Assembly (NCBI GenBank): GCA_963783375.1
Contig: CAWANH010000028.1
Span: 256,001 to 320,000 of the forward strand
DNA from: Candidatus Eiseniibacteriota bacterium
Lineage (GTDB): Bacteria; Eisenbacteria; RBG-16-71-46; JABDJR01
Direction: 5' to 3'
DNA: 64,000 bases
Below, piece by piece: positions 44,993 to 62,007 of this stretch (the first letter of the stretch is position 1; every line of letters begins with the position of its first letter). Made by a program: the position numbers and the translations under genes. The notes under the pieces were generated by a model. The model searched no databases, was not told where the DNA came from, and saw only the letters and a list, made by a program, of their open reading frames with translations.

Positions 44993-45021
44993 GTGGGGAC
45001 TCCGGGATGTGGGAAGCCAGG

Positions 45022-45049
45022 ATTATAGACCTCCGCTTCCGGGAAACAA
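45022..45049 (-). promoter_or_regulatory. Candidate sigma70 promoter (TTGTTT-16-TATAAT) for the receiver-TrxR operon
   Basis: Perfect TATAAT on the - strand, 30 bp upstream of ATG 44992. Confidence 0.5.
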
Positions 45050-45090
45050 TCCTGGAGTGCGCCGGGAATCCCGTCGCTGCCGGGCCCCGC

Positions 45091-46359
45091 TCAGACCTCG
45101 TCCCGCACCAGGGGGTGGCTCAGGCAGTGCGGCCCGCCCCGGGCGCGGGAGATCTCGTGGCTGGGGAGGAGGATGCACACGCGCTTCCCTTCGTCGAGGT
45201 CCACCTCCTCCCGGCCCAGGAGCAGATCCTCGGCGTCGATCACCCGGAAGCCCCGGCGTCCCAGTTCCTCGGCGGTCCCCTCGTTCCGGTCGTAGAGGGT
45301 GATCACCCCGGGGGCGACGGCGAGGGCGTTGGCCCCGTCGGTCCACTGTTCCCGTTGTTGGCGAACGGCATCACCGCCCCCGCAGGGGATCGGCTCCAGA
45401 TCGAGGCCCCGACGGGCGAGCGCGGCCAGGAGGTCCCCCGCGTCCACCGGGACCGGGTCCTCGGCGTGGAGATCGATCTCACCCACCGAGGCCGATTCGC
45501 GGCGGCCGGGGAGGAGCACCGGCGGGTAGATCAGCGCCGCGTCGCGGTCCACCGGGGTGATGAGGGTGTCGAGGTGCATGTAGGCCCGGCGCCGGGGGAT
45601 CTCGACCAGGAGCATCCAGCGGGGGCCGGTCTCGAGCTGGGCTAGGTTCCGGGCCAGAGCGGCGGTGGCGGTGGCGTTGGTGCGCTCGGAATGGCCGACC
45701 ACCACGACCTCCGGGGAGAGCACCAGGAAGTCGCCCCCCTCGAAGCACGGGCGGTGAACGTCGAGGAAGAGCGCATCCTCGGCGGAGAACTTGAGCGGAT
45801 CGTGGAGCACCGAGGCCGCGGCAAGATCGGGATGGAACCGGAAGATGGCCCGGGCCAGGAGCGCCTCGCGGTGGCGGGCCGGAGCGGCCATGGCCCCGAA
45901 GATGACCCCGTCCCCCAGGACGACCTGGGGATCGCGTTGGAAGCACCAGTTGGGAATGGGGGGAACCTCGAACAGGTCCTCCGCCTCCACCCCGGGGGTC
46001 GCGGTTCCGGACCGCACCCCCGCCACCAGCATCTCGGCCAGGTCCGTCCCCGCCGCCTCCTGCATGCGGCGCCGGAGGCCCGGGGAGAGATCCCGCAGCA
46101 ACACGTTCAGCACCCAGGCCCGGGCCACCGGATCGTCGAGAACCTCGGCCAGGGCGTCCTGGGCGTCCACCGTCTCCACCCCCAGGAGCTGGAGCACGCG
46201 ACGGAAGAGCGCATGCTCCTCGCGCGCGCGGTTCCCGAACAGGACGTCGTCGAAGAGAAGGTCGTCCATCATGGCCGGAACCATGTGGTCCACTTCAAGA
46301 CCGGGTTCGTGAAGGAGAACTTTCTTCAGGCGACCGATTTCCGAGGTGACGCGAACCAT
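45091..46359 (-). CDS. arcA: Arginine deiminase
   Basis: V.SEIGRLKKVLLHEPG.E, LLFDDV, FQRD, FEGGD, MHLDT, REQWTDGAN, RARGGPHC (catalytic Cys). Confidence 0.88.
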   Translation of the reverse strand: MVRVTSEIGRLKKVLLHEPGLEVDHMVPAMMDDLLFDDVLFGNRAREEHALFRRVLQLLGVETVDAQDALAEVLDDPVARAWVLNVLLRDLSPGLRRRMQEAAGTDLAEMLVAGVRSGTATPGVEAEDLFEVPPIPNWCFQRDPQVVLGDGVIFGAMAAPARHREALLARAIFRFHPDLAAASVLHDPLKFSAEDALFLDVHRPCFEGGDFLVLSPEVVVVGHSERTNATATAALARNLAQLETGPRWMLLVEIPRRRAYMHLDTLITPVDRDAALIYPPVLLPGRRESASVGEIDLHAEDPVPVDAGDLLAALARRGLDLEPIPCGGGDAVRQQREQWTDGANALAVAPGVITLYDRNEGTAEELGRRGFRVIDAEDLLLGREEVDLDEGKRVCILLPSHEISRARGGPHCLSHPLVRDEV

Positions 46360-46408
46360 GCTCTGCCTGTCGGTTGGGGGTGAACGGAAGCGACCGGCCG
46401 ACGGCGCC

Positions 46409-46738
46409 TCAGCGCTTCTTCTTGGCGTTGTTCGGCTGCTCGCGCACTTCGGCCATGAGCACCAGGAACTCATCGTAGGGAACGGCGGGCCAGCTCTCGG
46501 CGGTGAGGGCGCCCTCGGTCCGGGAGATGAGAGACACCTGATGCGCGGTCTCCACGTCGGGGGCATCGTAGATGTCCATGAAGTCGTAGGGGCCTAGCAG
46601 GGCGTAGTGGCCGTGCCACCTCACCTGGGGACAGACCTCCTTCACCTTCTTCATCCACTCCTTCCCGGTGCTCCGCCGCTTGGCGGCGTCATGCATGGAC
46701 TCGGGCGAGAGCTTGGTCATGAGCACGAACGTCGGCAT
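46409..46738 (-). CDS. GYD-domain protein
   Basis: MPTFVLMTKL..YALLGPYDF..I.DAPD.E.A..S; AAGGAGG RBS. Confidence 0.85.
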   Translation of the reverse strand: MPTFVLMTKLSPESMHDAAKRRSTGKEWMKKVKEVCPQVRWHGHYALLGPYDFMDIYDAPDVETAHQVSLISRTEGALTAESWPAVPYDEFLVLMAEVREQPNNAKKKR

Positions 46739-46883
46739 GGAAACCTCCTTCCAGATGGATCCAGACAGGTCCCGACGCTCTGATGGTACACCGGATGGGG
46801 CGGGCGCACCGGGGTCCGGACCATGAATCATGACCGATCAAGTAGCCGAAGCCGCCGGGGACGATCCACCGGGCCCGGTGCGG

Positions 46884-47495
46884 CTAGTCGATCTCGGGGG
46901 GGCGGGCGGCCGCGCGGGCGGCGGCCAGGGTGAGGTCCAGGTATCCGGCCGCCCAGACGAACGGCGTCTCCCCCGCCTTCTTCGCGGCCCGGGGAAGCCA
47001 GGATAGCAGATGCCGCTCCACGAACTCGTGCCGGGCCCGGAGAACCTGCTCCTGAACCCCTCCCTCGCTTTCCGAATCCATCCGGCAGAGATGCGCGGTG
47101 AACTCGAGTTGATGGCGCAGATGGTCGGCGGTTTCGTTGGCTTCGCCCCGGAGCCGGAGACCGAAGCTCTTGTGGAAGAGAACGTTCTCATGGAGAACCC
47201 GAGGAACGGGGTCGCGCTTGTTGTAATGGGATTCCAGGAGCGGGACCGGGGGATGGGGAGCGCCGGCGTCGAACGCGGCGATGTACTGGGCCTCGTACTC
47301 CCCGGGAGCGTCCGGCAGGGCCGGTCCACCGGGAAGCGAAGGGTTGGCCAGGGCGCCGGTCAACCGCCGCCAGAACTCAGCGGTCTCCGGCGCGGTGAGC
47401 CAGGCCCACTGTCCGGGCCCGGGAACCCGGTAGAGATCGTGGAGGAAGAGGAACGCCGCGGCGAGATCCCCGGCTTCCAGGACGGTTCGGATCAC
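46884..47495 (-). CDS. Type II DMSO-reductase-family maturation chaperone (delta; NarJ/EbdD/SerD-like)
   Basis: EYEAQYIAAFD.G..PVPL.ES.Y, F...FGL, ETADHL..QLEF...L, F..RHL.SW; GTG start overlaps the gamma stop. Confidence 0.85.
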   Translation of the reverse strand: MIRTVLEAGDLAAAFLFLHDLYRVPGPGQWAWLTAPETAEFWRRLTGALANPSLPGGPALPDAPGEYEAQYIAAFDAGAPHPPVPLLESHYNKRDPVPRVLHENVLFHKSFGLRLRGEANETADHLRHQLEFTAHLCRMDSESEGGVQEQVLRARHEFVERHLLSWLPRAAKKAGETPFVWAAGYLDLTLAAARAAARPPEID

Positions 47496-48226
47496 GGGGT
47501 CACCTCGTACCAGAGGCTGTAGAACTTGAGCCCCGAACGCTGGTCGCGGTCCCCGTCCCAGACCGCGAAGGCCACGGGGGTGCCGGGGGCCGGAACGGGG
47601 AGCTCGAACACGACTTCCCATCCTTCTCCGGTCCGCCTCATCGTCCCGGGAAAGGAAGCCCCGGTTCCCTCCACTGTTCCCCGCCCCGCCCCGCCAAGAA
47701 CCTCGAAGCCCCGGGCGCGGTTCCAGTAGTACAGGTCCACCGGGTTGTCCCGGTCTCCCATCATGACCGCCGGAAAGCTTCCCGTGGGGCCCTGGGACCG
47801 CGGCACCATGACGCAGGCCGCGTCGGCGAACCGCTCGATGTCCCGGGAGTGCTCCTTGTAGATGTGCGTTTCCCCGCCGTCGGGATACCGGGCGGGGGGG
47901 CGAGGATCGCTGTCGGTGGCGTCGGTCCAGCGGAGCCGGACGAAGAGCGAATCCCCGCTCTGGATCAGGGCGACCCCGGCGGTGGGACGGTACCCGTCGT
48001 CGGTCGGGTCGCCCTCGTAGATGGGTGGGGTCCGGTTCATGTGGATCGGGATCTCGCCGGCCCGCGCCCATTCCGGGCCCTCTCCGGCCCGAAGGACCGA
48101 GGGCGCGGCGGAAACCACCGCCACCGGGAGAGGGAGCCCTCCGTCTTTCCCCACCCCCGGCCCCGCGCCCGCGACGCCGGCGGCGATAACCAGGACTCCC
48201 ACGGTCAGGATGATCACGCGCTTCAT
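47492..48226 (-). CDS. Periplasmic heme-b subunit (gamma; EbdC/SerC-like)
   Basis: Signal peptide; L.W.D.T, F.DA, VMMGD (Met ligand), W.VVF, VAFAVWDG..QRSGLK (Lys ligand). Confidence 0.85.
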   Translation of the reverse strand: MKRVIILTVGVLVIAAGVAGAGPGVGKDGGLPLPVAVVSAAPSVLRAGEGPEWARAGEIPIHMNRTPPIYEGDPTDDGYRPTAGVALIQSGDSLFVRLRWTDATDSDPRPPARYPDGGETHIYKEHSRDIERFADAACVMVPRSQGPTGSFPAVMMGDRDNPVDLYYWNRARGFEVLGGAGRGTVEGTGASFPGTMRRTGEGWEVVFELPVPAPGTPVAFAVWDGDRDQRSGLKFYSLWYEVTP

Positions 48227-48239
48227 GGACGACCTCCGT

Positions 48240-49607
48240 TCAGCACCAGTCGTCGCCTCCATCGGAAGGAGCGGGAGGAGCGGCCGCCGTGCACTCGGGC
48301 GCCAGGGAACAGCTCGAGCAGGCTTCATCGGGCGGGGCGGGAACCGGGGGTGACGGGTTCCCCGCGCGACGCCGGCGCGACGCCCCCACACCGGTCGCGA
48401 GCCCGAATGCGGCCCGAACCGGGCCTGGAATGCCCCCCCGACCGCGCCGGTCGCGCTTTCCCCCGTCGCCACCGGGCGCCGGGCTCTCGCCCTCCGCATC
48501 GCGGAGCGCGGCATGTTCGCCTGCCGTCTTCGCGCCGGGGGTCCCCAATTCGGTGAGCCCCGGACCCGGCTCGTATCCTTCCACGCGTCTCTTCACGTCC
48601 TCGGGAGCGTCCTTCAGCACCTCGCGAGGGGCCACGCGGAAACGCACCGAGGCGTCGCGCCCGATCAGGAGCTGGAGCAACTCACTCTTCTCCCCGGACT
48701 GCGCCCGCTTCAGCTCCCCTTCCAGCCGGTGGATCACCGTCACCACCTCGGGGCCGAAGAGGTACTTCAGGTAGTCAAGAGGCAGCCGCGGATCCTCCAG
48801 AACGCTGTTACCCGCGTTCCCCGACTTGGGAGGATTGAACGGGGGCACGTAGTACACGTTGGGAGAGGTGCCCTTCTCGGGGAAGAGGCCGAGAGCCACC
48901 TTGTACTTGATCACCAGTTTGTGCACCGGGGACTCTGGGTCGTCGAGAAGGCCCAGGAAGCGGATCCGGCCCGGACACTGGGCGGCGCAGGCGTTCACCT
49001 GCCCCTTCTCCAGACGCGGGTAGCAGAAGATGCACTTCTCGCTCTTTCCCTTGACCTCGTTGAAATAGATCTTCTTGTAGGGACAGGCCTTCACGCAGTA
49101 GCGATAGCCGCGGCAGCGCTCCTGATCGATGAGAACGATCCCGTCCTCCTCGCGCTTGTAGATCGCCTTCCGCGGACAGGCCTCGAGGCACGCCGGGTGG
49201 GTGCAGTGGTTGCAGATCCGGGGAAGGTAGAAGAAGTAGGGGTTGGCGGTGTCCCATCCTCCGACGTCCTCGTCCCAGTTCGGCGTGTAGGTGGGCTCGA
49301 CGTTGGGCATCACCGGCTTCCGCTTCCCCTCGAAGAGCCGCTGAGCGTAGTCGTACTCGAAGGCCTCGCCGTAGTCCTCCTTGGAGGGGAGGGCCGATGG
49401 GCGAAGATGGCGTTGCTCGTCGAACCCGCCCCCCAGGGTGTGCCACCCCCGGGGATAGCCGGCGCCGGGATGGGTCTCCACGTTGTTCCAGTACATGTAG
49501 TCCATGCCGTCGCCGTCGGTCCATTGCTTCTTGCAGGCCAGGGTGCAGGTCTGACACCCGATGCACTTGTTCAGGTCCATGACCATGGCGTACTGATGCT
49601 TGGACAC
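48240..49607 (-). CDS. narH: NarH-like Fe-S beta subunit with about 120-aa C-terminal extension
   Basis: MDLNKCIGCQTCTLACK, WNNVET, NWDED, PRICNHCTHPACLEACP, CRGYRYCVKACPY, KCIFCYP, C...CPGR. Confidence 0.9.
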   Translation of the reverse strand: MSKHQYAMVMDLNKCIGCQTCTLACKKQWTDGDGMDYMYWNNVETHPGAGYPRGWHTLGGGFDEQRHLRPSALPSKEDYGEAFEYDYAQRLFEGKRKPVMPNVEPTYTPNWDEDVGGWDTANPYFFYLPRICNHCTHPACLEACPRKAIYKREEDGIVLIDQERCRGYRYCVKACPYKKIYFNEVKGKSEKCIFCYPRLEKGQVNACAAQCPGRIRFLGLLDDPESPVHKLVIKYKVALGLFPEKGTSPNVYYVPPFNPPKSGNAGNSVLEDPRLPLDYLKYLFGPEVVTVIHRLEGELKRAQSGEKSELLQLLIGRDASVRFRVAPREVLKDAPEDVKRRVEGYEPGPGLTELGTPGAKTAGEHAALRDAEGESPAPGGDGGKRDRRGRGGIPGPVRAAFGLATGVGASRRRRAGNPSPPVPAPPDEACSSCSLAPECTAAAPPAPSDGGDDWC

Positions 49608-49609
49608 GG

Positions 49610-52582
49610 TCAGCTCCTCCCGTCGCGCTCGTAGCCGGCCACCGGTCCGTCGTACCGGGCGAAGTCCACCTTGATATCGCGGTTGTTCCCGGTCGGACCC
49701 CAGTAGTTGAGCCGGAAGTTCAGATGGCCGTAGCCGCCGATGAGCTGGGTGGGCTTGATCTTGATGTAGGTGAGGGACTGCCAGCCCCCTTCCTGGAATC
49801 CCAGGTACTTCTCCCATCCGTGGTACATGGTGAGCCGGCCTTGTTTCTCTCCCGGCAGGATCTTGGCCTTCACGACCGCCGATCCCTGTGCGTTGAAGAT
49901 CTTGACCCAGTCGTTGTCCTTGATCCCCCGGGACTTCGCGTCGCCGGGATGGATGTAGACGATGGGGAGCCCCCGCTGGAGCCGAAGGAGATAGCGGTTG
50001 TCCCGCCAGGTGGAGTGGATCGACCATCGTCCATGAGGGGTGTTCCAGAAGAACGGGTACTGGGGATCGTCCTGGGGGCCCTTGTGCACGGGGAGCGTCT
50101 CGCCGAGCGCCCGGTACCACTCGTGGTCCACGTAGAACTGCTGCCGGCCGGTCAGCGTCCGCCACGGCCGCTTCTTCTCCACCTGATGGGTGAAGGGCGT
50201 GTAGGCGCGGCCTTCCTCGATCTCGCTGTTCCAGACTTCGGGATCGATTCCCACGAAGCGCTGGGGGGACTCCTGGAGGCCGTGATAGGTCATCCCCCGG
50301 GTCTCGGCGGAGTTGGCCAGGATGAAGTTCGCCGCATCCTCGTCGGTGACGATCTTCCCTTTCCCCGACCAGTCGTCGTGGATATGGGTGAAATCCCGGC
50401 TCCAGCCCAGCTCCTTGTCCTCGAAAGGCTTCAAACCCCGTCGACGGGCCACTTCCTGGATCTTCGCGGCCAGGGCGCCGAACGCGTCCCAGTCGGTCTT
50501 GGATTCGAACAGCGGGTCGAGCACCTTGGAGAACGGGTGCATGTAGGAATGGCAATCGGTGGAGTTGAGATCGGTCTTCTCATAGTAGCTGGAGGCCGGG
50601 AGCACCACGTCGCTGTAGAGGGCGGTGGTGTCCATGCGATAGTTCACATCCACGATCAAGTCGAGGTCTTTCCAGAGGGAACGGATGATGGCTTCGTTTC
50701 CTTTGGCCTGGTTCAGGTAGTTGGCCCGCCACACGATCAGGGCGCGGGGCTTCCGCGGGAGATCGTGCATCTTCTCCGGGGTGAGCTTCTCCCAGTCGTT
50801 CCGGGGCCAGAGCGGCATCCAGCCCTTCCGGACCGATTCCAGGATGTAGTGTTCGATCGGCTTCCCGGCGATCCGGTGCGGATCCCGCATGGAGGAGTGG
50901 CAGTAGGTCCATAGGGTCGTGTTCTGGAACCGCTGCTTCTTCCCTCCCTCGGGAAAGGCCAGCATCTTGAACCCGTGCTCGGGCCACACCCGCTCCTGGC
51001 CCACGTAGTGGTTGAACCCGCCGCCGTTCTTCCCCACGTTCCCGGTGAGGGCCACGACGAGAATGAGCGCTCGGTTCAGGAGATCGTTGTGGTACCAGTG
51101 GTTGACCCCGGCGCCGTGAATGATCATGGCCGGTTTCCGGGTGAACCCGCGCGCGAACTGGATCAGGTCCTTCTCGGGAATGCCGCAGGCCGCCGCCGCC
51201 CGGGCCGGGGTGTAGAGGGGATCGGCCAGGGTTTCCTGGAGCATGGCGAAAACCGTGGTCACCTCCACCGGCTTCCCGTCGGCCAGGGTCACCTTCCAGC
51301 TCCCTTCGAGATCCGGATCCACGCTTCCGAAGCGCAGGGAACGGGCGGTGGAACCCATGGTTCCAGGGGCCTGGACCGGGCGGCCGGACGCGGCGTCGTG
51401 GACATAGAAGACGGATTCGGGGTCGATCGCGGCGGGTTCCCCGTCGCCCGAGTCTCCGGCGGTTCCCTGGTTCCAGGGGGAGACCCGCGGGGCCTCCCCC
51501 CGGTCCCCGGGGCGCAGGTGGGATGCGCGCAAGAACTCGCCGGTGTCGGTCCGCACCAGGAAGGGAAGATCGGTCTGCTCCTTGGCGTAGGGAACGTCCA
51601 TGTGGCCGTTCTCGATCAACCAGCGGCAGACCGCCAGGGCCAGGACGATGTCCATTCCCGGCTTGATCGGGACGTACTGGTCGGCATGGATGGAGCTGGT
51701 GTTGAAATCGGGGGACACGCAGGCCACGGTGGCGCCGTTGTAGCGGGCCTCCCAGGCGAAGTGGGCGTCGGGGATCCGGGTGGCGTTGATGTTGGAGCCC
51801 CAGAGCACGATGTGCTTCGCGTTGAACCAGTCCGCGCACTCGGAGGACTCGGTCTGAACTCCCCAGGTGATGGGTTCCCCGGGGGGGAGATCGCAGTACC
51901 AGTCGTAGAACGAGGCGACCACCCCGCCGAGGTAGTGGGCCACGCGGATGCCCGAACAGAAGCTCACCGGGCTCATGGCCGGGATGACCGAGAAGAACGT
52001 ATTGGTGTCGGGGCCGTGTTCGTAGACGTTGTCGAGGAGCTTCCCCGCGATGAGCTCGAGGGCCTCGTCCCAGGAGGCGCGGCGCCACTTGCCTTCGCCG
52101 CGTTCCCCCACCCGGATGAGGGGGTACTTGATCCGCTGGGCGCCGTAGACGTACTCCACGAAGCACGCGCCCTTCTGGCAGCCCCGAGGGTTGTAGTCGG
52201 GGAGATCGAAGGAGATGCGGGGGTAATCGGCCGCCTGCTCCTCCCGGAGCATGATGCCGTCCTTCACGTACACCTTCCACGAGCAGGAGCCGGTGCAGTT
52301 GGCGGAATGGGTGGAGCGCACCACCCGATCCCAGGAGAAGCGTTTCTGATAGAGATCCTCCCACCCACGGTAGGGATAGGTCCGGAGAGGATCAACGTCC
52401 AGGATCTCGAATTCCTCCAGATCCGCTCCCGCCGGGCGGACCAGGAGGGCGGCCAGGCCGAGCCCGGTTCCGGCTCCCACCTGAAGGAAACGCCGCCGGG
52501 AGAGGGGCTTCTTCCCCTCGACTCCATCGCGGTCTCCGGTTTCGCTCGCCGGTCGTTCGTCGTGGATGAGCTTGTCGGTCAT
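49610..52582 (-). CDS. narG: TAT-exported molybdopterin alpha subunit, periplasmic NarG (pNar)-type nitrate reductase
   Basis: SRRRFLQ TAT motif; THSANCTGSC..PRGCQKG (FS0); IPAMSPVSF; SFYDWYCDLPP (Asp Mo ligand); TRIPDAHF; HYVGQE; TPHGRWSIHSTW. Confidence 0.88.
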   Translation of the reverse strand: MTDKLIHDERPASETGDRDGVEGKKPLSRRRFLQVGAGTGLGLAALLVRPAGADLEEFEILDVDPLRTYPYRGWEDLYQKRFSWDRVVRSTHSANCTGSCSWKVYVKDGIMLREEQAADYPRISFDLPDYNPRGCQKGACFVEYVYGAQRIKYPLIRVGERGEGKWRRASWDEALELIAGKLLDNVYEHGPDTNTFFSVIPAMSPVSFCSGIRVAHYLGGVVASFYDWYCDLPPGEPITWGVQTESSECADWFNAKHIVLWGSNINATRIPDAHFAWEARYNGATVACVSPDFNTSSIHADQYVPIKPGMDIVLALAVCRWLIENGHMDVPYAKEQTDLPFLVRTDTGEFLRASHLRPGDRGEAPRVSPWNQGTAGDSGDGEPAAIDPESVFYVHDAASGRPVQAPGTMGSTARSLRFGSVDPDLEGSWKVTLADGKPVEVTTVFAMLQETLADPLYTPARAAAACGIPEKDLIQFARGFTRKPAMIIHGAGVNHWYHNDLLNRALILVVALTGNVGKNGGGFNHYVGQERVWPEHGFKMLAFPEGGKKQRFQNTTLWTYCHSSMRDPHRIAGKPIEHYILESVRKGWMPLWPRNDWEKLTPEKMHDLPRKPRALIVWRANYLNQAKGNEAIIRSLWKDLDLIVDVNYRMDTTALYSDVVLPASSYYEKTDLNSTDCHSYMHPFSKVLDPLFESKTDWDAFGALAAKIQEVARRRGLKPFEDKELGWSRDFTHIHDDWSGKGKIVTDEDAANFILANSAETRGMTYHGLQESPQRFVGIDPEVWNSEIEEGRAYTPFTHQVEKKRPWRTLTGRQQFYVDHEWYRALGETLPVHKGPQDDPQYPFFWNTPHGRWSIHSTWRDNRYLLRLQRGLPIVYIHPGDAKSRGIKDNDWVKIFNAQGSAVVKAKILPGEKQGRLTMYHGWEKYLGFQEGGWQSLTYIKIKPTQLIGGYGHLNFRLNYWGPTGNNRDIKVDFARYDGPVAGYERDGRS

Positions 52583-52592
52583 GTTCCGTTCC

Positions 52593-54170
52593 TCACCGGG
52601 GGTCCGCCGCGGCCCGGTCCGGAGACTCCGGCGCGGGCCCGACGGAGGCCGAAGCGGTGGTTCCCGCCGCCGGCGTCCCCAGGGATTTGACGTAGGCCAC
52701 CAGGTCGTTGATGTCGGTTCGGTCCAGGCCCCCCCAGCCGGGGGCGAGGAAGGCGGGCATGGCGGTGTCGGTCCGGCCGTAGGCCACCGTCCGGAACACG
52801 AGTTCCCGGCTCGCGTTGTGCTGGAAGGTGGAGTTGGCGAGGCTCGGTCCCAGAACGCCCAGGCCGGTCGGGCCGTGGCAACCGGCGCAGTTCTTCAGGA
52901 AGAGCACGGAGCCGCGTTCCGGATCGCCCGGCCCGGGGTCGGCGATCAGGGCGGAATCGGCCCCGGCGGCGGTCTCGGAGACGGTGACCGGTCGCCCCAG
53001 CACGTACCCGGTCAACCGGGCGATATCGTCCTCGGAGAGCCCCCCCGCCTCGGGGCCCCAGGCCGGCATGAGGGTGCCGGGGCGCCCGTCCCGGATCATG
53101 GCGGCCACGAAGGCGGGGTCGGCGATCTCGCGAAAGGTTTTCCCGCGAACGGCGGGGATGAAGCGGGCGAAGAACTTGTCGTACCGGCCGCTGGATCCGG
53201 TGTCGTGGCACTTGGCGCAAAGCTCGGTGTAAAGGGCTTCGGCCGGCCTCGGCTCGGGCCGCGACCGATGGTATATCTCCAGGTGCTTCTCCGGGCTCAC
53301 GTAGGAACCGGGGAAATCGCGTTCCTGGAGCGACAGCACGAAGGAGGTGAGGGCGACGGTCTCCCGGCGGTTCAGGCCGGGGTTGGGCATCCGGCTCCCC
53401 GCCACCACCGCCTGGGGATCCGCGAAGTGCTCGATCAACCACTCCGGCACGGTGTGGGGGCCCTGGATGGCCGCGAAGGGGAGCTGACCCTTCACCTTCA
53501 GCCCCTCGTTGTCCAGGGCGGGGCCCAGGGCCCCCCCCAACCGGTTCAGTTTGTGGCAGCTCCGGCACCCCTTGGTCTCGAACAGCGCCGCTCCGCGTGC
53601 GTACACCTCGCCCCCCCGGTCCGCGACCTCGGCCGGCGTGTGGCAGAGCCCGCAGGCGGACTGGGTGAGGTCGAGGGGAAGGAGGGGATAATCCCAGTGA
53701 CGGTCCTCGGCCTTGGCGTCGGCGAAATCCGTGGCCCGTCCCTGGCCCCGGTGGCAGACGGTGCAACCGAATCGGGCGTCCTCGTGCCAGGAAAGGTACC
53801 GTCCGGGATGTGTGCGGTAGGGATTCGGCTCCTTCACCATTCGGGGGTCGTCGTAGCCGGTATGACAGCTCACGCACCGATCCACCGTCCCGAGATCGGG
53901 AACCACGATCTGGCGCATCTGAACCTCGAAGTTCTCGGCCAGCTTCTTCCCCCAGGGGTCCGTGGCCTTCTCCCTCAGGATCTTCCCGTATCGGATCTGG
54001 TAGAGACGCCAAGGAGCGGCGTAGTTCTCCTTGATCGCCGCCCCGGCCAGGACGGCGAGGGTGGCCAGGCTGACCGCGAGGAGCCAGATCTTGACCCGGC
54101 GGTCGGTGCGGGCCGCCTCCTCGCGGACCTCGGGAGTGAGCCGTTCATCCTGTGGGTTGTGACTAGTCAT
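52593..54170 (-). CDS. Membrane-anchored hexaheme cytochrome c
   Basis: N-terminal TM; six CxxCH motifs (CVSCH, CTVCH, CGLCH, CRSCH, CAKCH, CAGCH); the last three are followed by class-I-type MP motifs. Confidence 0.92.
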   Translation of the reverse strand: MTSHNPQDERLTPEVREEAARTDRRVKIWLLAVSLATLAVLAGAAIKENYAAPWRLYQIRYGKILREKATDPWGKKLAENFEVQMRQIVVPDLGTVDRCVSCHTGYDDPRMVKEPNPYRTHPGRYLSWHEDARFGCTVCHRGQGRATDFADAKAEDRHWDYPLLPLDLTQSACGLCHTPAEVADRGGEVYARGAALFETKGCRSCHKLNRLGGALGPALDNEGLKVKGQLPFAAIQGPHTVPEWLIEHFADPQAVVAGSRMPNPGLNRRETVALTSFVLSLQERDFPGSYVSPEKHLEIYHRSRPEPRPAEALYTELCAKCHDTGSSGRYDKFFARFIPAVRGKTFREIADPAFVAAMIRDGRPGTLMPAWGPEAGGLSEDDIARLTGYVLGRPVTVSETAAGADSALIADPGPGDPERGSVLFLKNCAGCHGPTGLGVLGPSLANSTFQHNASRELVFRTVAYGRTDTAMPAFLAPGWGGLDRTDINDLVAYVKSLGTPAAGTTASASVGPAPESPDRAAADPR

Positions 54171-54179
54171 CGCCGGACC

Positions 54180-55727
54180 TCAATGCAAGGGCCACTGGGA
54201 CTTGCTCCAGTAGAACCCCCAGTTGGGACCCCTGAGCTCGGAGCCCACGTAGGTCAGGATCACGAAACCGACCAGGAAGCAGGTGAAGAGCGCGATCGCC
54301 GACATGCGGGTGGAGTTCGTCCGCTTCAGGACCCCCAAAGACCAGAGAACATAGGCCGCGGTGAGGAGCGTCCCCGGGTTCACCGCGATAATGAGCAGCT
54401 GGGGAACGTGGGGGAACCAGTTCCGGATCCAGCCGAAGGTGACGGGGACCGCCACCGCCAGGATCGCGGTCAGCGCCGCGAAGATCAGGCTCTGGAGCGC
54501 CACCCGCTTCCCCCGGGATCCGCTCAGGTAGACCCCGGCGTCTTCGGGCTCCCGGTCGAGATAGGGGATCAGAGCCAGGCCCAGAACCGCCACCGCGGGG
54601 ATCACGAGCCCCCCCATGAAGGCGGAGTAGGACACCAGCTCCTGAAGCCCCAGGAAGTACCACGGCGCCTTGGCCGGATTCTCGGGAACGCTGGCGTTGG
54701 CCAGCTCCTTCAGGGGGGCGTCGAAGAAGATTCCAAGGAGAACCACCACCAGCATGCAGGCCATGAAGACCAGGAGTTCGGCCCGGAGCAGGTAGGGAAA
54801 GCTCGGCACGGTCTCGGAGGGATCGAGGTTGGCGGCGGGACGACGGTCCCGAACCAGGCACATGAGCCCGAAGGTCTTCCGGGTGGCCTCGGCGGGGGCC
54901 CGCGCCGGCGTGCCGGAGGGAGGCGCTCCCTTCCCCGCCGGCGTGGACGCCGTCCCCGGCCGGCCCAGTCCCCCATCCTTGCGGATCCGCCAGAAGTGGA
55001 CGCTCAGAAGCGCGGCCACCGCCAGGGGGAGCACCATCACGTGGAGCAGGTAGAACCGGATCAACGCTTCCGGGCCCACGCCGGTCGCCCCGAGCAGGAG
55101 TTCCTTCTGGAATCCACCGGGATCGAAGAAGCGGGTGACGCCCAGGGCGTCGGTCAGCTCACGCGGCGATCCCGCGATGTTGCTCCCGATGGTGATGGCC
55201 CAGTAGGCGAGCTGGTCCCAGGGAAGAAGGTAGCCGGTGAAGGAGAGCCCCAGGGTGAGGATGAAGAGCCCCATCCCCATCAGCCAGTTGAACTCCCGCG
55301 GCTTCTTGTAACTCGCGGTATAGAACACCCGCACCATATGGAGAATCACCGTCACCACCATGAGGTGGGCGGACCAGCGGTGGATGTTCCGGATGAAGCG
55401 TCCGGTGGGAACGGCGTAGTGGATGTCCTTCATGCTCTGATACGCCTGATCCACCGAGGGTTTGTAGTAGACCATGAGGAGCACCCCGGTCACGACCAGG
55501 ATGAGGAAGAAGCTCAGGGTGGCGATCCCCATGGCCATGGTGGTCGAGAACCGGAGCGTGCGGATGTGGGTCCGCGTCGAGTGGAGGTGGAGGTACACGT
55601 TGGAGAACACGGTCTGGGAGCGGCTGCGGTCGGTGACCGGCGGGCCGTGACGCACCAGGGACTCCTTGAAGTTCCGGGGCAGGCGTCGCAGGTTTTCCTT
55701 GAAGGCGTCCAGACCGATGCTGCTCAT
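54180..55727 (-). CDS. Cytochrome b6 fused to subunit IV (Rieske/cytb complex)
   Basis: HRWSAH..ILH..RVFY..YKKPREFNW, TGYLLPWDQLAYWA, RFYLLH-x14-H; subunit IV part PENPAKAPWYF. Confidence 0.92.
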   Translation of the reverse strand: MSSIGLDAFKENLRRLPRNFKESLVRHGPPVTDRSRSQTVFSNVYLHLHSTRTHIRTLRFSTTMAMGIATLSFFLILVVTGVLLMVYYKPSVDQAYQSMKDIHYAVPTGRFIRNIHRWSAHLMVVTVILHMVRVFYTASYKKPREFNWLMGMGLFILTLGLSFTGYLLPWDQLAYWAITIGSNIAGSPRELTDALGVTRFFDPGGFQKELLLGATGVGPEALIRFYLLHVMVLPLAVAALLSVHFWRIRKDGGLGRPGTASTPAGKGAPPSGTPARAPAEATRKTFGLMCLVRDRRPAANLDPSETVPSFPYLLRAELLVFMACMLVVVLLGIFFDAPLKELANASVPENPAKAPWYFLGLQELVSYSAFMGGLVIPAVAVLGLALIPYLDREPEDAGVYLSGSRGKRVALQSLIFAALTAILAVAVPVTFGWIRNWFPHVPQLLIIAVNPGTLLTAAYVLWSLGVLKRTNSTRMSAIALFTCFLVGFVILTYVGSELRGPNWGFYWSKSQWPLH

Positions 55728-55791
55728 GACCGCTTTCTTCCCCGCGGGTCGGGCTCGGATCGGGTGGGTGGGTCGACGGGTTCGTGCACGG

Positions 55792-56259
55792 TTAGGCCCG
55801 ATAGAACGTGCCCTGGGGCACTTCCCGCTTGGCGTCCACCACCAGGCTGCCGTCGGCGGCCCGCGAAACCTCGAGCCATCGGAGGGGCCTCGGAGCGGGC
55901 CCCCCCAGGACGTCGCCGACGGGGTCGAACCGCGAGCCGTGGCAGGGGCATTTGAACCCCTCCGCACTCTCCCCCACGATGCAACCCAGGTGGGTACAGA
56001 CCATGGACATGGCCGCCACTCCCCGGGGGGTGGCCATCACCCGCACGTTCCGCTCGGCGAGGATGCGGGTGGTTCCGGGGGGAAACTCCTCGGGGCGGCC
56101 GATCCGAAAACGGCTTCCCGCCTCGGGGAGGACCCGCGGCATGGGCAGGCGGACCATCCCCACGATGGAACCCAGAACCGCGGCCCCCGCCGCGGCCAGG
56201 CCGGCCAGGCTCAGGAAGTCGCGTCGGGGGAGAGGATCGGGAGTCAGTCGATCCGACAT
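55792..56259 (-). CDS. Rieske [2Fe-2S] subunit
   Basis: PRRDFL TAT anchor; CTHLGC and CPCHGSRF; GPAPRPL. Confidence 0.95.
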   Translation of the reverse strand: MSDRLTPDPLPRRDFLSLAGLAAAGAAVLGSIVGMVRLPMPRVLPEAGSRFRIGRPEEFPPGTTRILAERNVRVMATPRGVAAMSMVCTHLGCIVGESAEGFKCPCHGSRFDPVGDVLGGPAPRPLRWLEVSRAADGSLVVDAKREVPQGTFYRA

Positions 56260-58196
56260 GCGGGCACCTCCTCGAATCGGAACCGTTCCATGGTGATGGC
56301 GCCGGTGGGGCAGCGCTCGGCGCAGAGACCGCAGCGAATGCAGAGGGTCTCGTCCTTGAGGATGGCCGAGGCCTCGACCGGATCCAGGCCGGCGAGCCGG
56401 TTGGCCACGAGCCCGGCGAGATCGTCCAGGGCCGGGTCGCCCGAAGCGGTCAGGCGGTCGGCGGAGACGATGCGGAGGCAGAGTTCGGGACAGACGTCCA
56501 CGCATCCCCCGCAGAGGATGCACCGGTCGCCGTCGAAGATGGTGTTCACCCCGCAGTCCAGACAGCGCGAGGCCTCCCGCCGGGCCTGCGCCCCGGAGTA
56601 GCCGGTCTCGACCTGGGCGCGGGGGTCCCCCATCCGGCTCTCGGGCGACGCGGTGGGGATCGGAACCCGGGAGATCCGCTCGTAGTCCGGTTCCCGCCGG
56701 TAGTCGGGAATGGCGAGATGGAGCTGGACATCCCGGTGGGTGACGGCGCGTCCGGTGAAGTCGCCGTAGATCTCCCGGGCCACCTGTTTTCCCGAGGCCA
56801 CGGCGTGGATCAGGAGTTTCGGCCCGTAGGCCAGGTCCCCGGCGACAAAGACGTCGGATGCGGAGGTGCGCCCGGTGACCCCGTCGCAGGCCAGGTATCC
56901 CCGTCCGGTCACCTCGAGCCCGTCGCGCCCGGCGTCCACGAAGGAAAGGTCCACCGCCTGGCCGACGGCGAGGAGCACGTTGTCGCAGCGGATGGTCTCC
57001 CGAACCGAGTCGTCGAACACCGGGTTGAAACGACGGTTCTCGTCGAAGACGCGCAGGCAGCGACGGAACGCCACGCCGCGTACCCGGCCCGATTGGGTGG
57101 TCAGCACCTCCACCGGGCCCAGGCTGTTCCGGCGGATGATGCCCTCTTCGTCCCCCTCGATGATTTCGGCGTCGTCCGCGGGCATCTCGTCCAGGGACTC
57201 GAGGGAGCAGAGATGGACCTCCCCCACCCCATGCTCCCGGAGCGCGGTGCGCGCGGTATCAAGGGAGATCTGCCGAAGAACCGAACGACCCACGTCGTAG
57301 GCCACGTTCCCACCTCCGATCACCACCACGCTCTTTCCGAGGGCCGGCGGACGGCCGAGCGCCACGTCGCGCAGGAATTCCACCCCACCCAGGACACCCT
57401 GGGCGTCGGCCCCGGGGAGCGGGAGAATACGGGAGCGCTTGGCCCCCACCGCGATCACCACCGCGTCGTGGCGGGCGCGGAGTTCGGAGAGCGAGACGTC
57501 TCGACCCACCTCGCAGTTCAGGACCGCCTTCACGCCCATGGCCAGGATGACCTCGACCTCCGCGTCGATCTCCTCTCGGGGCAACCGGTAGCCGGGAACC
57601 CCCAAGGCGAGCATCCCGGCGAGGACCGGCTCCATCTCGTAGATCGTGACCTCCACCCCGAGAAGGGCCAGGTCGTGGGCGGCGGCCAGTCCGGCAGGCC
57701 CACTCCCCACGATCCCCACCGAGCGCCCGACCACCGGAGAGAGGTCGCCGGTCAGAAGCGATCGGAGAATGGGGAGGAGTTCGTCCGTGTCTTCACAAGC
57801 TCGGGGAGCGTGGCGTCGGGCCGCATCCTTGAGGAACTCGATCAGGTCCCGGCCGCCGGCGGGGCGGGCCTCGGGTCCGAACGATTCGCAGACGAAGCGC
57901 TTGAGGGCCCGGATGGCGATGGGCCGGTCGATGTCGCCGCGACGGCAGGCGGCCTCGCAGGGCGCGCCGCAGATCCGTCCGCAGATCGAGGCCAACGGGT
58001 TGGGTCCCCGGGCGATGAGGTAGGCCAGCTCATCGTCGCCGGCGGCGATGGCCCGCACGTAGCCCCGGGCGTCGGTGTGAACCGGGCACGCGGCCTGACA
58101 CTTAATCTGGCTCTTCCAGTAGAAGCGGTCAGGCACGCGGACGAAGACCGGATCGATACCGTCGCTGCCTGTCGGGGGGGCTACCCGATCCACCAT
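56244..58196 (-). CDS. FAD/NAD(P)-dependent Fe-S oxidoreductase (GltD/NfnB/DsrL-like) with C-terminal ferredoxin domain
   Basis: CQAACP, CGRICGAPCEAAC, GSGPAG, GGGNVA, FVAGD, RCLDC, CILCGGCVDVCP, CIRCGLCAERCP; overlaps the Rieske start by 16 nt. Confidence 0.9.
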   Translation of the reverse strand: MVDRVAPPTGSDGIDPVFVRVPDRFYWKSQIKCQAACPVHTDARGYVRAIAAGDDELAYLIARGPNPLASICGRICGAPCEAACRRGDIDRPIAIRALKRFVCESFGPEARPAGGRDLIEFLKDAARRHAPRACEDTDELLPILRSLLTGDLSPVVGRSVGIVGSGPAGLAAAHDLALLGVEVTIYEMEPVLAGMLALGVPGYRLPREEIDAEVEVILAMGVKAVLNCEVGRDVSLSELRARHDAVVIAVGAKRSRILPLPGADAQGVLGGVEFLRDVALGRPPALGKSVVVIGGGNVAYDVGRSVLRQISLDTARTALREHGVGEVHLCSLESLDEMPADDAEIIEGDEEGIIRRNSLGPVEVLTTQSGRVRGVAFRRCLRVFDENRRFNPVFDDSVRETIRCDNVLLAVGQAVDLSFVDAGRDGLEVTGRGYLACDGVTGRTSASDVFVAGDLAYGPKLLIHAVASGKQVAREIYGDFTGRAVTHRDVQLHLAIPDYRREPDYERISRVPIPTASPESRMGDPRAQVETGYSGAQARREASRCLDCGVNTIFDGDRCILCGGCVDVCPELCLRIVSADRLTASGDPALDDLAGLVANRLAGLDPVEASAILKDETLCIRCGLCAERCPTGAITMERFRFEEVPACRID

Positions 58197-58232
58197 GGAA
58201 CCTCCATCCCGGGTTCGCGATCCAATTCCGGT

Positions 58233-58261
58233 AGAATAGGACTTGCAGGTCCTGATATCCA
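58233..58261 (-). promoter_or_regulatory. Candidate sigma70 promoter (TGGATA-17-TATTCT) of the 8-gene respiratory operon, with an inverted repeat in the spacer
   Basis: AT-rich island; 17-bp spacing; AGGACTTGCAGGTCCT dyad at 58238-58253; GGAGG RBS at 58201-58205. Confidence 0.5.
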
Positions 58262-58334
58262 TTTTATTCCTGAAAAATGACTTATCCAGAAAATCAATGA
58301 CATCTAAGCGCTTATTTAGTTGGGGTTTAGAAGG

Positions 58335-58682
58335 TTATCCACGCGTTTTCGACACGTCCCGGACCCAGCAGTACGCGGCCACCGTAGCCGGCATTCCCAG
58401 GGTTCCCGCGGCCAGGGCCACCACCTGCTCCAGCTCCTCAGGAGTGATCCCGAGCGCCAGAGCCTTCCGCACGCTGGAATGGACCGCGCCTTCCTGGCGA
58501 GCTCCGATGGCAATGCCGAGCTTCACCAGCCGCCGGGTCTTCTCGTCGAGAGGTCCGGCGTTCTTTCCTCCGGCGTTCACGAATTCCCAGGCCTTTCCCA
58601 GCTCCGGGAATCGCTCCACGAACTCGTCGTGGATACGCGGCGGCTTGGGAAGTTTGGTCTTGGCGGGTTTCCTGGTGGCCAT
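58335..58682 (-). CDS. Carboxymuconolactone decarboxylase/AhpD-like protein
   Basis: GPLDEKTRRLVKLGIAIG..GAVHS..RKAL..GITPEEL; no CxxC. Confidence 0.85.
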   Translation of the reverse strand: MATRKPAKTKLPKPPRIHDEFVERFPELGKAWEFVNAGGKNAGPLDEKTRRLVKLGIAIGARQEGAVHSSVRKALALGITPEELEQVVALAAGTLGMPATVAAYCWVRDVSKTRG

Positions 58683-58686
58683 CGTG

Positions 58687-59106
58687 TCACTCTCCCATGA
58701 TCTGCGCGGTGATTCTCCGCTCCCGAGCGCGGGTGTCGAAGTCGCACAGGATGATCTGCTGCCAGGTCCCCAGCGTCAACCGCCCACCCACGAACGGCAC
58801 GGTGAGGCTCGGTCCGAGGAGCGCCGCGCGCACGTGGGCATGGCCGTTGTCGTCCCCCCAGCGCAGGTGATGGCGGTACTCCCGGCCCGCCGGAGCCACC
58901 TCGTCGAAGAGGCGCTGGAAATCCGAGACCGCCCCCGGCTCGAACTCGATGGTGGTGAGGCCCGCAGTGGAGCCGGGCACGAACAGGGTGAGCAACCCGT
59001 CGGTTAGCCCGCTCTCCCGCACCGCCTGCTCGGCGTCCGCGGTGAGATCCCGGGTGTCGCCGTTCCCCCGGGTCCGGCAGGTGATGCTCGCGGTTCGAAC
59101 CGCCAT
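58687..59106 (-). CDS. yjbQ: YjbQ/UPF0047 family protein
   Basis: GSTAGLTTIE.E, Y.HH..DDNGHAHVRA, LGTWQ.I...DFD. Confidence 0.9.
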   Translation of the reverse strand: MAVRTASITCRTRGNGDTRDLTADAEQAVRESGLTDGLLTLFVPGSTAGLTTIEFEPGAVSDFQRLFDEVAPAGREYRHHLRWGDDNGHAHVRAALLGPSLTVPFVGGRLTLGTWQQIILCDFDTRARERRITAQIMGE

Positions 59107-59122
59107 CGCGCGCTCCTCCCTT

Positions 59123-60130
59123 TCATCTTGAATCGCGGCCGGTTCGAGGAGGGTCCGACGGGCCCGTATCCCCCGCTCCGGTCAGTAGATCATGGGTCTT
59201 CATCCAACCCAGAACCGCCTCGATCAACCGGGGCATCATCTCGTTCTCGTCGATCACCTTGTGTCCGGTCTCGAGCCAGAGCAGTTCCTTCGGCTCCCCT
59301 GCCGCATCGTAGAGAGCGAGCACCGACGCACGGGGGATGATCCTGTCACCGGATCCGTTCACCATCAAGAGCGGTCGCGGGGAGATCCGCGCCGCGTAGC
59401 GGGAGGGCTCGAGTCGATCGAGCCACGGGTTCATGGCCAGCGCAACCCCCGCCCGGAACCAGCGCGGCCCCCAGGGGAGGTTCTCCGCCACCACCCGCCG
59501 GACGTCGCCGCCGCCGTAGAGGACGGCCACCCCGGCGAAGCCGGGATCCGCCGAACCGGCGATCACCGCGGCGAACGCTCCCAGGCTCGCGCCGGCCACG
59601 GTGATCCGGCGGGGATCCACGTCCGGGCGCGTGCGGAGATACTCCAGGGCGAGAAGCAGCCCGCTCACCGAGGCCTCGGCCCCGCGCGCCGCCCGGGGGA
59701 GCGCGCGAAAGAACCCCACCGGTCCGGGAAACCGCGTGGGGGGGACGTAGGGATAGTCGAAGGAGAGGCGCACCAGCGCGAGGTCGGGGGAGGGCAGATG
59801 ATCGAGGGCCCGCCGCCCGGCCTGGATCCCCCCCAGAACGAGGAGCCCGGGGAGTCGGCCGCCGATGCCGGCCGGCCGTTCCACCCGGCAGATCAGTATC
59901 TGCCCGGCGCCTCCCGCCAGTCGGATCTCCTCCCGCAAGAGTCCCGGGACGGGCGAGGAACGGTCGATCGTATCGACACGCGACGAGATCCCCCCCAGGC
60001 TTCGAACCCGCGCCTCGGACCAGGGACTCCGCGGAAGAATCACCCAAAGGAGCACGGCGAGGACCGCCGCCGGCGGGAGCACCCGGACCAGGCGGGGCCC
60101 AAGGCGAGGAAACGGGCGGGCTTCACGCAT
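59123..60130 (-). CDS. Membrane-anchored alpha/beta hydrolase
   Basis: YLRTRPDVDP.RI..AGASLG, PLLMVNG..D.IIP, GH. Confidence 0.8.
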   Translation of the reverse strand: MREARPFPRLGPRLVRVLPPAAVLAVLLWVILPRSPWSEARVRSLGGISSRVDTIDRSSPVPGLLREEIRLAGGAGQILICRVERPAGIGGRLPGLLVLGGIQAGRRALDHLPSPDLALVRLSFDYPYVPPTRFPGPVGFFRALPRAARGAEASVSGLLLALEYLRTRPDVDPRRITVAGASLGAFAAVIAGSADPGFAGVAVLYGGGDVRRVVAENLPWGPRWFRAGVALAMNPWLDRLEPSRYAARISPRPLLMVNGSGDRIIPRASVLALYDAAGEPKELLWLETGHKVIDENEMMPRLIEAVLGWMKTHDLLTGAGDTGPSDPPRTGRDSR

Positions 60131-60374
60131 GGACGGCTCCAGGGCTCGAGGATCCGGACTCCGGGGAGACCCTCAGGGCTCCTTGTACCACGACCGGCTT
60201 CCGACCGCCAGGCGAGGGCGCCGCGGGATCCCCTCCACGGTCAATTCGTTGGAGGATAAGGAGTTGAGGCATTGCCGCGCGAACCCCTCAAGACTCATAC
60301 CGAATAGGAGCGATGCCGATAACCCGAGCACGGGCCGAAGACTGGCGGCCCGGATCCAAAGGGGGCCCACAGCT

Positions 60375-61943: not shown

Positions 61944-62007
61944 CCCGTCCGGCCGGAAATTTCCAGGGGACCGCGCTCCGATCGCGCCCCGGCCGGCGGA
62001 CGTGGCG

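Follow-up and report, generated by a model that had tools for sequence, protein, structure and literature searches.

An Eight-Gene Block Predicted to Join an NAD-Linked Rieske/Cytochrome b Module to a Periplasmic Nitrate Reductase in a Candidatus Eiseniibacteriota Bacterium

Why would a bacterium place a flavoprotein of predicted NAD(H) specificity, a Rieske/cytochrome b complex, a hexaheme cytochrome c and an exported molybdoenzyme side by side? The question is raised by eight genes in a 64,000-nucleotide stretch of DNA (hereafter the window; positions 256,001–320,000 of contig CAWANH010000028.1, assembly GCA_963783375.1) from a Candidatus Eiseniibacteriota bacterium (the host). The answer we prefer, tentatively and at somewhat less than an even chance, is that their products would form a menaquinol:nitrate chain in which quinol electrons are split between nitrate and NAD+. 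Published work is cited by PMC number from the accessible parts of each text.

Open reading frame (ORF) coordinates and Pfam/NCBIfam matches confirm a preliminary description of this DNA as to eight genes on one strand, their order (Table 1) and their spacing. The gaps between successive genes, 5′ to 3′, are −16, 64, 9, 10, 2, 13 and −4 nt, the first being a 16-nt overlap of the flavoprotein and Rieske genes. The single promoter also described is less secure: a σ70-like site (9/12 match) precedes gene 1 by 65 nt and the block itself contains none, but the scan returned three sites against 1.0 expected and hence argues only weakly for a promoter. The −35 part of the site is also found at the empty site of relative G050 (see below). 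Terminator-like matches are at chance level (7 found, 7.6 expected), and nothing in Rfam matched across 44000–62000.

On sequence, the alpha and beta subunits are assigned to the DMSO reductase type II family of complex iron-sulfur molybdoenzymes, with scores of 1112.5 bits for alpha against TIGR03479 (cut-off 984.75) and 505.8 bits for beta against TIGR03478 (cut-off 480.7). Gamma (83.7 bits, TIGR03477 cut-off 169.85) and the chaperone (83.2 bits, TIGR03482 cut-off 152.3) fall below the corresponding cut-offs and above those of Pfam. The best PDB matches of alpha are PcrA (5e7o/4ydd, E 1e-267), and its identity is 49% to Haloferax mediterranei NarG, 40% to ClrA and 31% to NxrA. Alpha carries a twin-arginine translocation (Tat) signal, RRRFL (a Tat-like motif is present in 96/120 homologs), an FS0 site of His92 and three Cys (H92/C96/C100 in 118/120) and the Mo-ligand Asp231 (120/120). 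Its gate residues F225/Y226/E530, kept in all 120 homologs, align with F164/Y165/W461 of PcrA and are identical to the F/Y/Glu gate of H. mediterranei NarG; Glu at the PcrA Trp461 position is the NarG state (PMC6650914). These comparisons place alpha closest to PcrA and the haloarchaeal periplasmic nitrate reductases (pNar), as a predicted Tat-exported member of the pNar class. The earlier label "NarG" needs correcting as to family: alpha is of DMSO reductase type II and scores 624 bits against the narG family TIGR01580, under its cut-off of 1084.

That score, the RRRFL signal and the lack of a NarI match in the genome speak against a cytoplasmic NarGHI. The absence of narI and narK, previously noted for the window, extends to the whole genome: tblastn at E 1e-6 with one query each, the NarI protein of a cytoplasmic nar locus and the NarK-like MFS transporter encoded upstream of narG there, gave no match. 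The enzyme does not fit perchlorate reductase PcrAB, having Glu530 in place of Trp461 and no chlorite dismutase match in the genome. Nitrate is very probably the substrate. Nitrate respiration by the host is equally probable in our view, given that the host lacks matches to RuBisCO and acetyl-CoA synthase (ACS) and has two complex I NuoF genes. The same wiring ending in chlorate, perchlorate, selenate or another oxyanion appears highly improbable. It would suit the perchlorate reductase PcrA as nearest solved relative and the reported reduction of (per)chlorate by pNar enzymes in vitro (PMC6650914); against it stand the gate Glu, the missing chlorite dismutase, the modest identity to ClrA and nitric oxide (NO)-stress genes near homologous loci. 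In L002 these neighbors are qNor and Rrf2 genes immediately preceding the operon; L004 has Crp and a weakly matching NnrS, and L001 has Rrf2 and hemerythrin.

In gamma, M156 and K234 are invariant in 7/7 rows, ClrC and the H. mediterranei gamma included, and are likely the heme ligands, a Met/Lys pair that we take to be as in EbdC. Beta has a C-terminal, low-complexity tail of ~120 aa (window 48240–48600) ending in CxxCx5C. This motif occurs in four of six beta subunits compared (those of the window, L001, L002 and L101), being absent in L004 and L161, and is possibly an extra metal or Fe-S site.

Upstream of the molybdoenzyme, the Rieske protein has an RRDFL Tat anchor and the motif CTHLGC...CPCHGSRF. 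Its Ser/Phe (S-F) signature, found in 25/26 Mo-linked loci scored in earlier sets and 32/32 Acidobacteriota loci, belongs to a class described as "Mid+, about 260 mV" (PMC4122944), and a mid-to-high potential is predicted. The heme His residues of cytochrome b (H116/H130/H229/H244) have b6-type spacing, and its subunit-IV part has five predicted hydrophobic helices after residue 300. The APWY Qo motif, H47, R249 and E317 are present in 40/40 rows; motif and Rieske class together assign the protein to the APWY clade. The Cys for heme c_n (position 65) is found in none of 40 rows, in 0/30 Mo-linked rows against 4/20 outgroup rows, and in none of 32 Acidobacteriota loci; judged from these alignments, heme c_n is lost. 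The cytochrome c consists of an N-terminal tri-heme part and three class-I-like hemes. M261, M368 and M471 are invariant in 8/8 aligned rows, and the three distal hemes are predicted to be His/Met-ligated and of high potential, which together with the gamma Met/Lys pair would be consistent with a high-potential wire.

The nearest PDB entries of the flavoprotein by sequence and fold (model pLDDT 84) are the NfnABC/StnABC flavo-domains 9bov, 8oh5 and 9n5u. Thirteen of its Cys residues are invariant in 40 rows, and four [4Fe-4S] clusters are predicted, two GltD-type and two in the C-terminal ferredoxin domain. E333 and R204 are present in 40/40 rows and R510 in 39/40. Following the second Rossmann strand, the acidic motif S/C-L-E333 points to NAD(H) in preference to NADP(H), on our assumption that NADP-specific relatives carry basic residues there; R204 is presumably the NfnB-like Arg. 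No signal peptide was seen on the protein, which is predicted to be cytoplasmic, and no Nfn-type small partner subunit is among the eight genes of the block.

In our judgment the flavoprotein is quite probably a docked subunit of the Rieske/cytochrome b complex. A complex prediction (two copies of cytochrome b 25–340, four hemes, flavoprotein 485–650) scored 0.01 and was counted neither way. The invariant H47/R249 and near-invariant R510 may resemble residues of the extra interface heme modeled in Kuenenia, a likeness matched by position only. Were docking wrong, the complex could run an ordinary Q-cycle to nitrate with the flavoprotein only loosely tied to it, as a ferredoxin/NADP(H) link or for poising or maturation. 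More distant Rieske/cytochrome b loci without a nearby flavoprotein (e.g. L118, L119 and L159) would fit this, and the invariant R204 would leave flavin-based chemistry with another partner possible. We nevertheless find it improbable, given the overlap of the flavoprotein and Rieske genes, the presence of a flavoprotein gene directly upstream in all 31 Acidobacteriota loci with enough DNA, the broad agreement of the flavoprotein and cytochrome b trees described below, and the reported co-migration of the Kuenenia subunits (PMC12954380).

A synteny comparison, proposed in the preliminary description, found the eight genes conserved together in several phyla, so that the lack of joint conservation named there as a refutation did not occur. 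All eight lie in order, by tblastn, in L001 (Ignavibacteria), L002, L004 (Acidobacteriota), L005 (Terriglobia), L101 (own class) and L227, and, by tblastn with ORF reading, in L125 and L161. One alpha homolog, 78% identical, is labeled Ca. Eisenbacteria; another, 74% identical, is from a genome labeled Hinthialibacter antarcticus, for which the accessible part of the published account lists NarGH and makes no mention of Rieske (PMC9324843). The front module is present at all five close alpha-found loci, among the matches listed. Such loci (at least five close ones), having been found by alpha, were left out of the following count, which avoids bias.

The count comprises loci found by cytochrome b, in its long form (about 507–515 aa, at least 53% identity), with more than 3.6 kb downstream: 55 in all, of which 8 are from the host phylum, 17 from metagenomes and 30 from Acidobacteriota. 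Loci with less than 3.6 kb downstream were dropped (L124, L127, L131, L135, L136, L138, L139, L141, L145–L148, L152, L153, L155, L158, L179, L182, L187, L224 and L245), and those with a shorter (about 420–440 aa) or split cytochrome b were assigned to sister groups; for most of these, the vicinity contains no Mo enzyme. A nitrate/nitrite Mo enzyme follows the cytochrome c in 55/55 loci: pNar in 8 (6 hemes), an enzyme of nitrite oxidoreductase (NXR) type, closest to anammox NxrA 7b04, in 45 (7 hemes), and a NapA-like enzyme with NapH in 2 (10 hemes). Among sampled genomes the long form occurs in 32/401 Acidobacteriota and, at 58% identity or more, in 9/206 of the host phylum, where alpha occurs in 3/206.

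Trees were built with FastTree on tblastn segments, leaving L176 out of the cytochrome b tree and loci with short flavoprotein matches out of the flavoprotein tree. In the latter, a single clade (support 1.0) holds all Mo-linked loci, and its sister comprises two loci with cbb3-type oxidase genes. In the cytochrome b tree, the deep nodes of which are weakly supported, the protein of the window clusters with that of a NapA-linked locus, an indication that the terminal enzyme has been swapped among the three nitrate/nitrite molybdoenzyme types.

The survey also bears on a reverse operation of the complex, in which nitrite would be oxidized and electrons driven by the proton motive force via Rieske/cytochrome b to quinone and NAD+. 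The APWY motif has been proposed as a mark of reverse-running complexes (PMC4122944), 45 of the 55 loci carry an enzyme closest to NxrA, and the host has aerobic oxidases. However, the host has no match to RuBisCO or ACS; the module is also joined to NapA-like enzymes and has a sister clade with cbb3 oxidase, all of them reductases; and alpha is itself pNar-like, far from NxrA in identity. Reversal is, to our mind, the least probable of the alternatives.

Several variants of the module were seen. The NxrAB-like (anammox/Nitrospira-type) form is the commonest in Acidobacteriota (28/30 loci with enough DNA; L102–L107, L216–L247). At L181:13120-17505 and L184 a sister module combines a heptaheme c with the cbb3-type oxidase genes and has its flavoprotein gene downstream, and at L100:5766-11254 and L154 a decaheme c accompanies NapH and a divergent NapA-like enzyme that scores below the NapA cut-offs. 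Flavoprotein-Rieske-cytochrome b-hexa/octaheme modules with no terminal enzyme nearby (L149, L156, L160, L169, L171, L110, L116 and L188) often have a ~450-aa protein and a monoheme c as neighbors. L007:2892-9903, from a Syntrophus aciditrophicus metagenome-assembled genome, has Rieske, cytochrome b, octaheme c and a type II Mo alpha in two ORFs; no flavoprotein match was found at that locus.

The host genome, 97% complete, reads as that of a facultatively anaerobic heterotroph, with two NuoD and two NuoF genes, the futalosine genes for menaquinone and two heme-copper oxidase clusters. A search for ATP-citrate lyase, in which no control matched, was uninformative.

In the arrangement we prefer, menaquinol would be oxidized at the P-side site of the Rieske/cytochrome b complex. 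The first electron would pass from Rieske through hexaheme c, gamma and beta to the periplasmic nitrate reductase, a high-potential route already put forward in the preliminary description and in keeping with the gate, the heme c Met and the gamma Met/Lys residues; the second would pass through the b hemes and an Fe-S chain to FAD and NAD+. Complex I would re-oxidize the NADH and refill the quinol pool, and this NADH loop would give a heterotroph a reason to run quinol-driven NAD+ reduction. It would conserve a larger share of the ~500 mV between menaquinol and nitrate, at about 4–6 charges per nitrate compared with 2 for a Q-cycle or NarGHI, and would also supply NADH from substrates entering at the quinone level. 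With potentials of −74, −320 and +420 mV, the computed ΔG is −13 to −25 kJ per turnover after two charges have been moved; re-oxidation by complex I could add at most 2.7–4.1 protons, within a computed ceiling of 5.5–8.2 charges.

The NAD+ branch is favored by the Ser-bearing Rieske, the missing heme c_n Cys, the adjacency of the flavoprotein gene, the positional likeness of H47, R249 and R510 to the Kuenenia interface-heme residues, and the negative computed ΔG. The forward direction is favored by the cbb3-linked sister clade, the lack of RuBisCO and ACS, the menaquinone pathway and the duplicated NuoF and NuoD. If the flavoprotein is docked, the chances that NAD+ reduction is the net direction seem about evenly balanced.

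Several points weigh against this reading. No complex of this type is known to have been biochemically characterized, and the anammox mechanism of quinol-driven NAD+ reduction is itself a proposal (PMC12954380). At the position of the bc1 Qi-site Asp, E317 is invariant, and the b6 counterpart of R249 is Arg207. A quinone site on the N side, or a heme bound non-covalently, may thus survive; this speaks against the N-site being simply lost and would permit a normal Q-cycle or the input of NADH. Heterotrophs have no shortage of NADH, the loop would run near its thermodynamic limit, and there remains the published link between APWY and reverse operation (PMC4122944). The 55 loci are related, not independent. 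Finally, NirK, NirS and NosZ gave no match in the host genome and NrfA no full-length match (partial multiheme matches only).

Under the alternative with NADH as the input, the flavoprotein would oxidize NADH and pass the electrons, on the cytoplasmic side, to the b hemes or to a quinone site at the N side. The complex would then be a self-contained NADH:nitrate oxidoreductase, similar to the Q-cycle as Mitchell first conceived it, with a donor from outside. Every step would be downhill, the invariant E317 occupies the Qi-site acid position, and the host is heterotrophic. Such a complex would bypass complex I, and with it proton pumping, in a host that carries two copies of NuoF; it has no heme c_n Cys, has Arg at the position of what we take to be the Qi His of bc1, and carries a Rieske signature higher than a plain menaquinol Q-cycle needs. 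The loss of complex I pumping has been argued likewise for Kuenenia (PMC12954380). We consider NADH input possible though unlikely, and tentatively favor quinol-driven NAD+ reduction over it.

The block appears to have moved as one piece. Five close relatives, three from the host's genus and two from its family, have none of the eight genes, and their flanks are joined by 52–457 nt; in four of them at least one small flanking gene is missing as well. A single contig of G050, of the same genus, matches window 44186–46819 (93%) and 58331–59377 (89%) with 68 nt between. A clean empty site in a 93%-identical relative indicates that the eight genes probably travel as a unit, and gain of the block in the host lineage is a simpler reading than loss. 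The pentamer ATGAC occurs at both block ends (46830, 58277), a weak signal given that G050 differs there, and no integrase or transposase was seen in the block. Movement as a single block would be explained if the cassette were portable and brought both donor and acceptor, a point for NADH input. Contigs from two soil DNA runs of one study cover the region thinly, one of them spanning the left junction; a contig joint skipping 46957–57507 was rejected as an artefact, its short side having merely 43 letters. In G061, alpha lies on a 4-kb contig, too short to show the rest of the block.

Beside the block, a response-regulator/thioredoxin-reductase fusion next to a histidine kinase (43332–44992, minus strand) appears frameshifted. 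An assembly error is the likely cause: after 43856, the contigs of the two soil runs have an additional C.

Elsewhere in the host genome, qNor, an Rrf2 regulator and a RIC-like gene lie far from the operon (G000 C28:1832366-1836205), and uncharacterized octaheme proteins are encoded. Very large multiheme cytochromes with 51, 42, 23, 19 and 16 CxxCH motifs (G000 C28:1119317-1127193, C29:1462912-1466112, C1 and C13) suggest extracellular electron transfer. Quinol-oxidizing systems number four in this genome: that of the operon, two further Rieske/cytochrome b clusters, of which one includes a caa3-like oxidase, and an ACIII-like cluster that also has an oxidase.

Table 1. Coordinates of the eight-gene block, its surroundings and related host clusters (window positions unless a contig is given)
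Feature	Position	Strand	Basis
Flavoprotein gene (GltD/NfnB-like FAD/Fe-S, 650 aa)	56244..58196	-	Pfam Pyr_redox_2, Fer4_20, Fer4
Rieske [2Fe-2S] gene (155 aa)	55792..56259	-	Pfam/NCBIfam
Cytochrome b6 fused to subunit-IV part (one 515-aa ORF)	54180..55727	-	Pfam/NCBIfam
Membrane-anchored hexaheme cytochrome c gene	52593..54170	-	exactly 6 CxxCH, one N-terminal helix
Mo-bisPGD alpha subunit, pNar type (990 aa)	49610..52582	-	TIGR03479 above cut-off
Fe-S beta subunit (455 aa)	48240..49607	-	TIGR03478 above cut-off
Heme-b gamma subunit	47492..48226	-	Pfam EB_dh; N-terminal signal helix
TorD/NarJ-type maturation chaperone (203 aa)	46884..47495	-	Pfam Nitrate_red_del
Leader with σ70-like site (58288-58261)	58197..58334	-	promoter scan
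Indel block relative to G050	46830..58281		single-contig alignment; ends approximate
Further quinol-oxidizing clusters of the host	G000 C28:351967-358220; C29:1066320-1078543; C29:1454909-1456615		

The distribution of the module implies that this route of nitrate respiration is not rare, given the long-form cytochrome b in both Acidobacteriota and the host phylum. Surveys using narGHI as markers would miss the operon, and those reading NXR-type genes as nitrite oxidation could misread the module-linked ones. The most far-reaching form of the proposal is a mobile, widespread class of complexes in which quinol bifurcation against nitrate makes NADH, a loop with complex I replaces the Q-cycle and roughly doubles or triples the charge yield of nitrate respiration, the terminal enzyme has been swapped, and most linked Acidobacteriota NXR-like genes encode nitrate reductases rather than nitrite oxidases. 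Taken as a whole, it strikes us as rather doubtful.

Among the closest known systems are the Rieske/cytochrome b complexes of Kuenenia stuttgartiensis (Kuste4569-4574 and Kustd1480-1485; PMC12954380), which correspond to subfamily G in PMC5600118 and to the APWY clade in PMC4122944. The comparison is with their published description. Shared features are the four-Fe-S NAD(P) flavoprotein, a b6-type cytochrome b, a hexa- or multiheme c replacing cytochrome f, a five-helix subunit IV part (modeled for both Kuenenia complexes), a Ser-bearing Rieske (+335 mV for Kustd1480; PMC12954380) and a menaquinone host. In contrast to Kuenenia, b6 and subunit IV are fused here without the heme c_n Cys, a predicted Mo nitrate reductase takes the place of an HAO-like octaheme protein as terminal enzyme, and the host shows no carbon-fixation markers. 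The module would thus work like the anammox-type NAD(P)-linked complex without being a strict member, since cytochrome b is one fused 515-aa ORF and lacks the heme c_n Cys.

The H. mediterranei cluster (locus L207) shares Rieske, cytochrome b, NarG, NarH, an EB_dh gamma and the chaperone (PMC3509893), but has neither a flavoprotein nor a c-type cytochrome; its Rieske is of the Gly/Phe low-potential kind, its Qo motif is PDWF and its cytochrome b, of actinobacterial type, is just 28% identical. PcrAB (4ydd/5e7o) and ClrABDC have in common with the operon the type II alpha/beta/gamma/delta organization, Tat export and the Asp ligand; the operon differs in Glu530 for Trp461, in having no chlorite dismutase and in bringing its own Rieske/cytochrome b donor. 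Rieske/cytochrome b with multiheme c has also been proposed to serve periplasmic nitrate reduction in Caldithrix abyssi (PMC5317091) and Methanoperedens (PMC4683180). The former has a Nap cluster with Rieske/cytochrome b and the latter pNar, with Rieske/cytochrome b and pNar in separate clusters (PMC4683180); the accessible parts of these accounts do not mention an NAD-linked flavoprotein.

Flavoprotein-bearing complexes are in print for anammox and, by gene proximity, for "many other cases" (PMC5600118). The joined operon is described in no paper found by searching the main text of accessible articles, and the accessible part of PMC6037941 has nothing on it. The preliminary description's view that the operon merges anammox-like and haloarchaeal pNar designs stands as regards the conserved, joined gene set: the operon is a new combination of two known designs, conserved and uncharacterized. 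In mechanism, our reading repeats what has been proposed for anammox (PMC12954380), the acceptor being new. The window contributes an empty site resolved almost to the nucleotide, a sister group linked to cbb3 oxidase, and arguments from individual residues on both sides of whether a quinone site persists on the N side. The operon gives the anammox proposal a case with a defined and easily assayed acceptor, nitrate, outside slow-growing anammox cultures.

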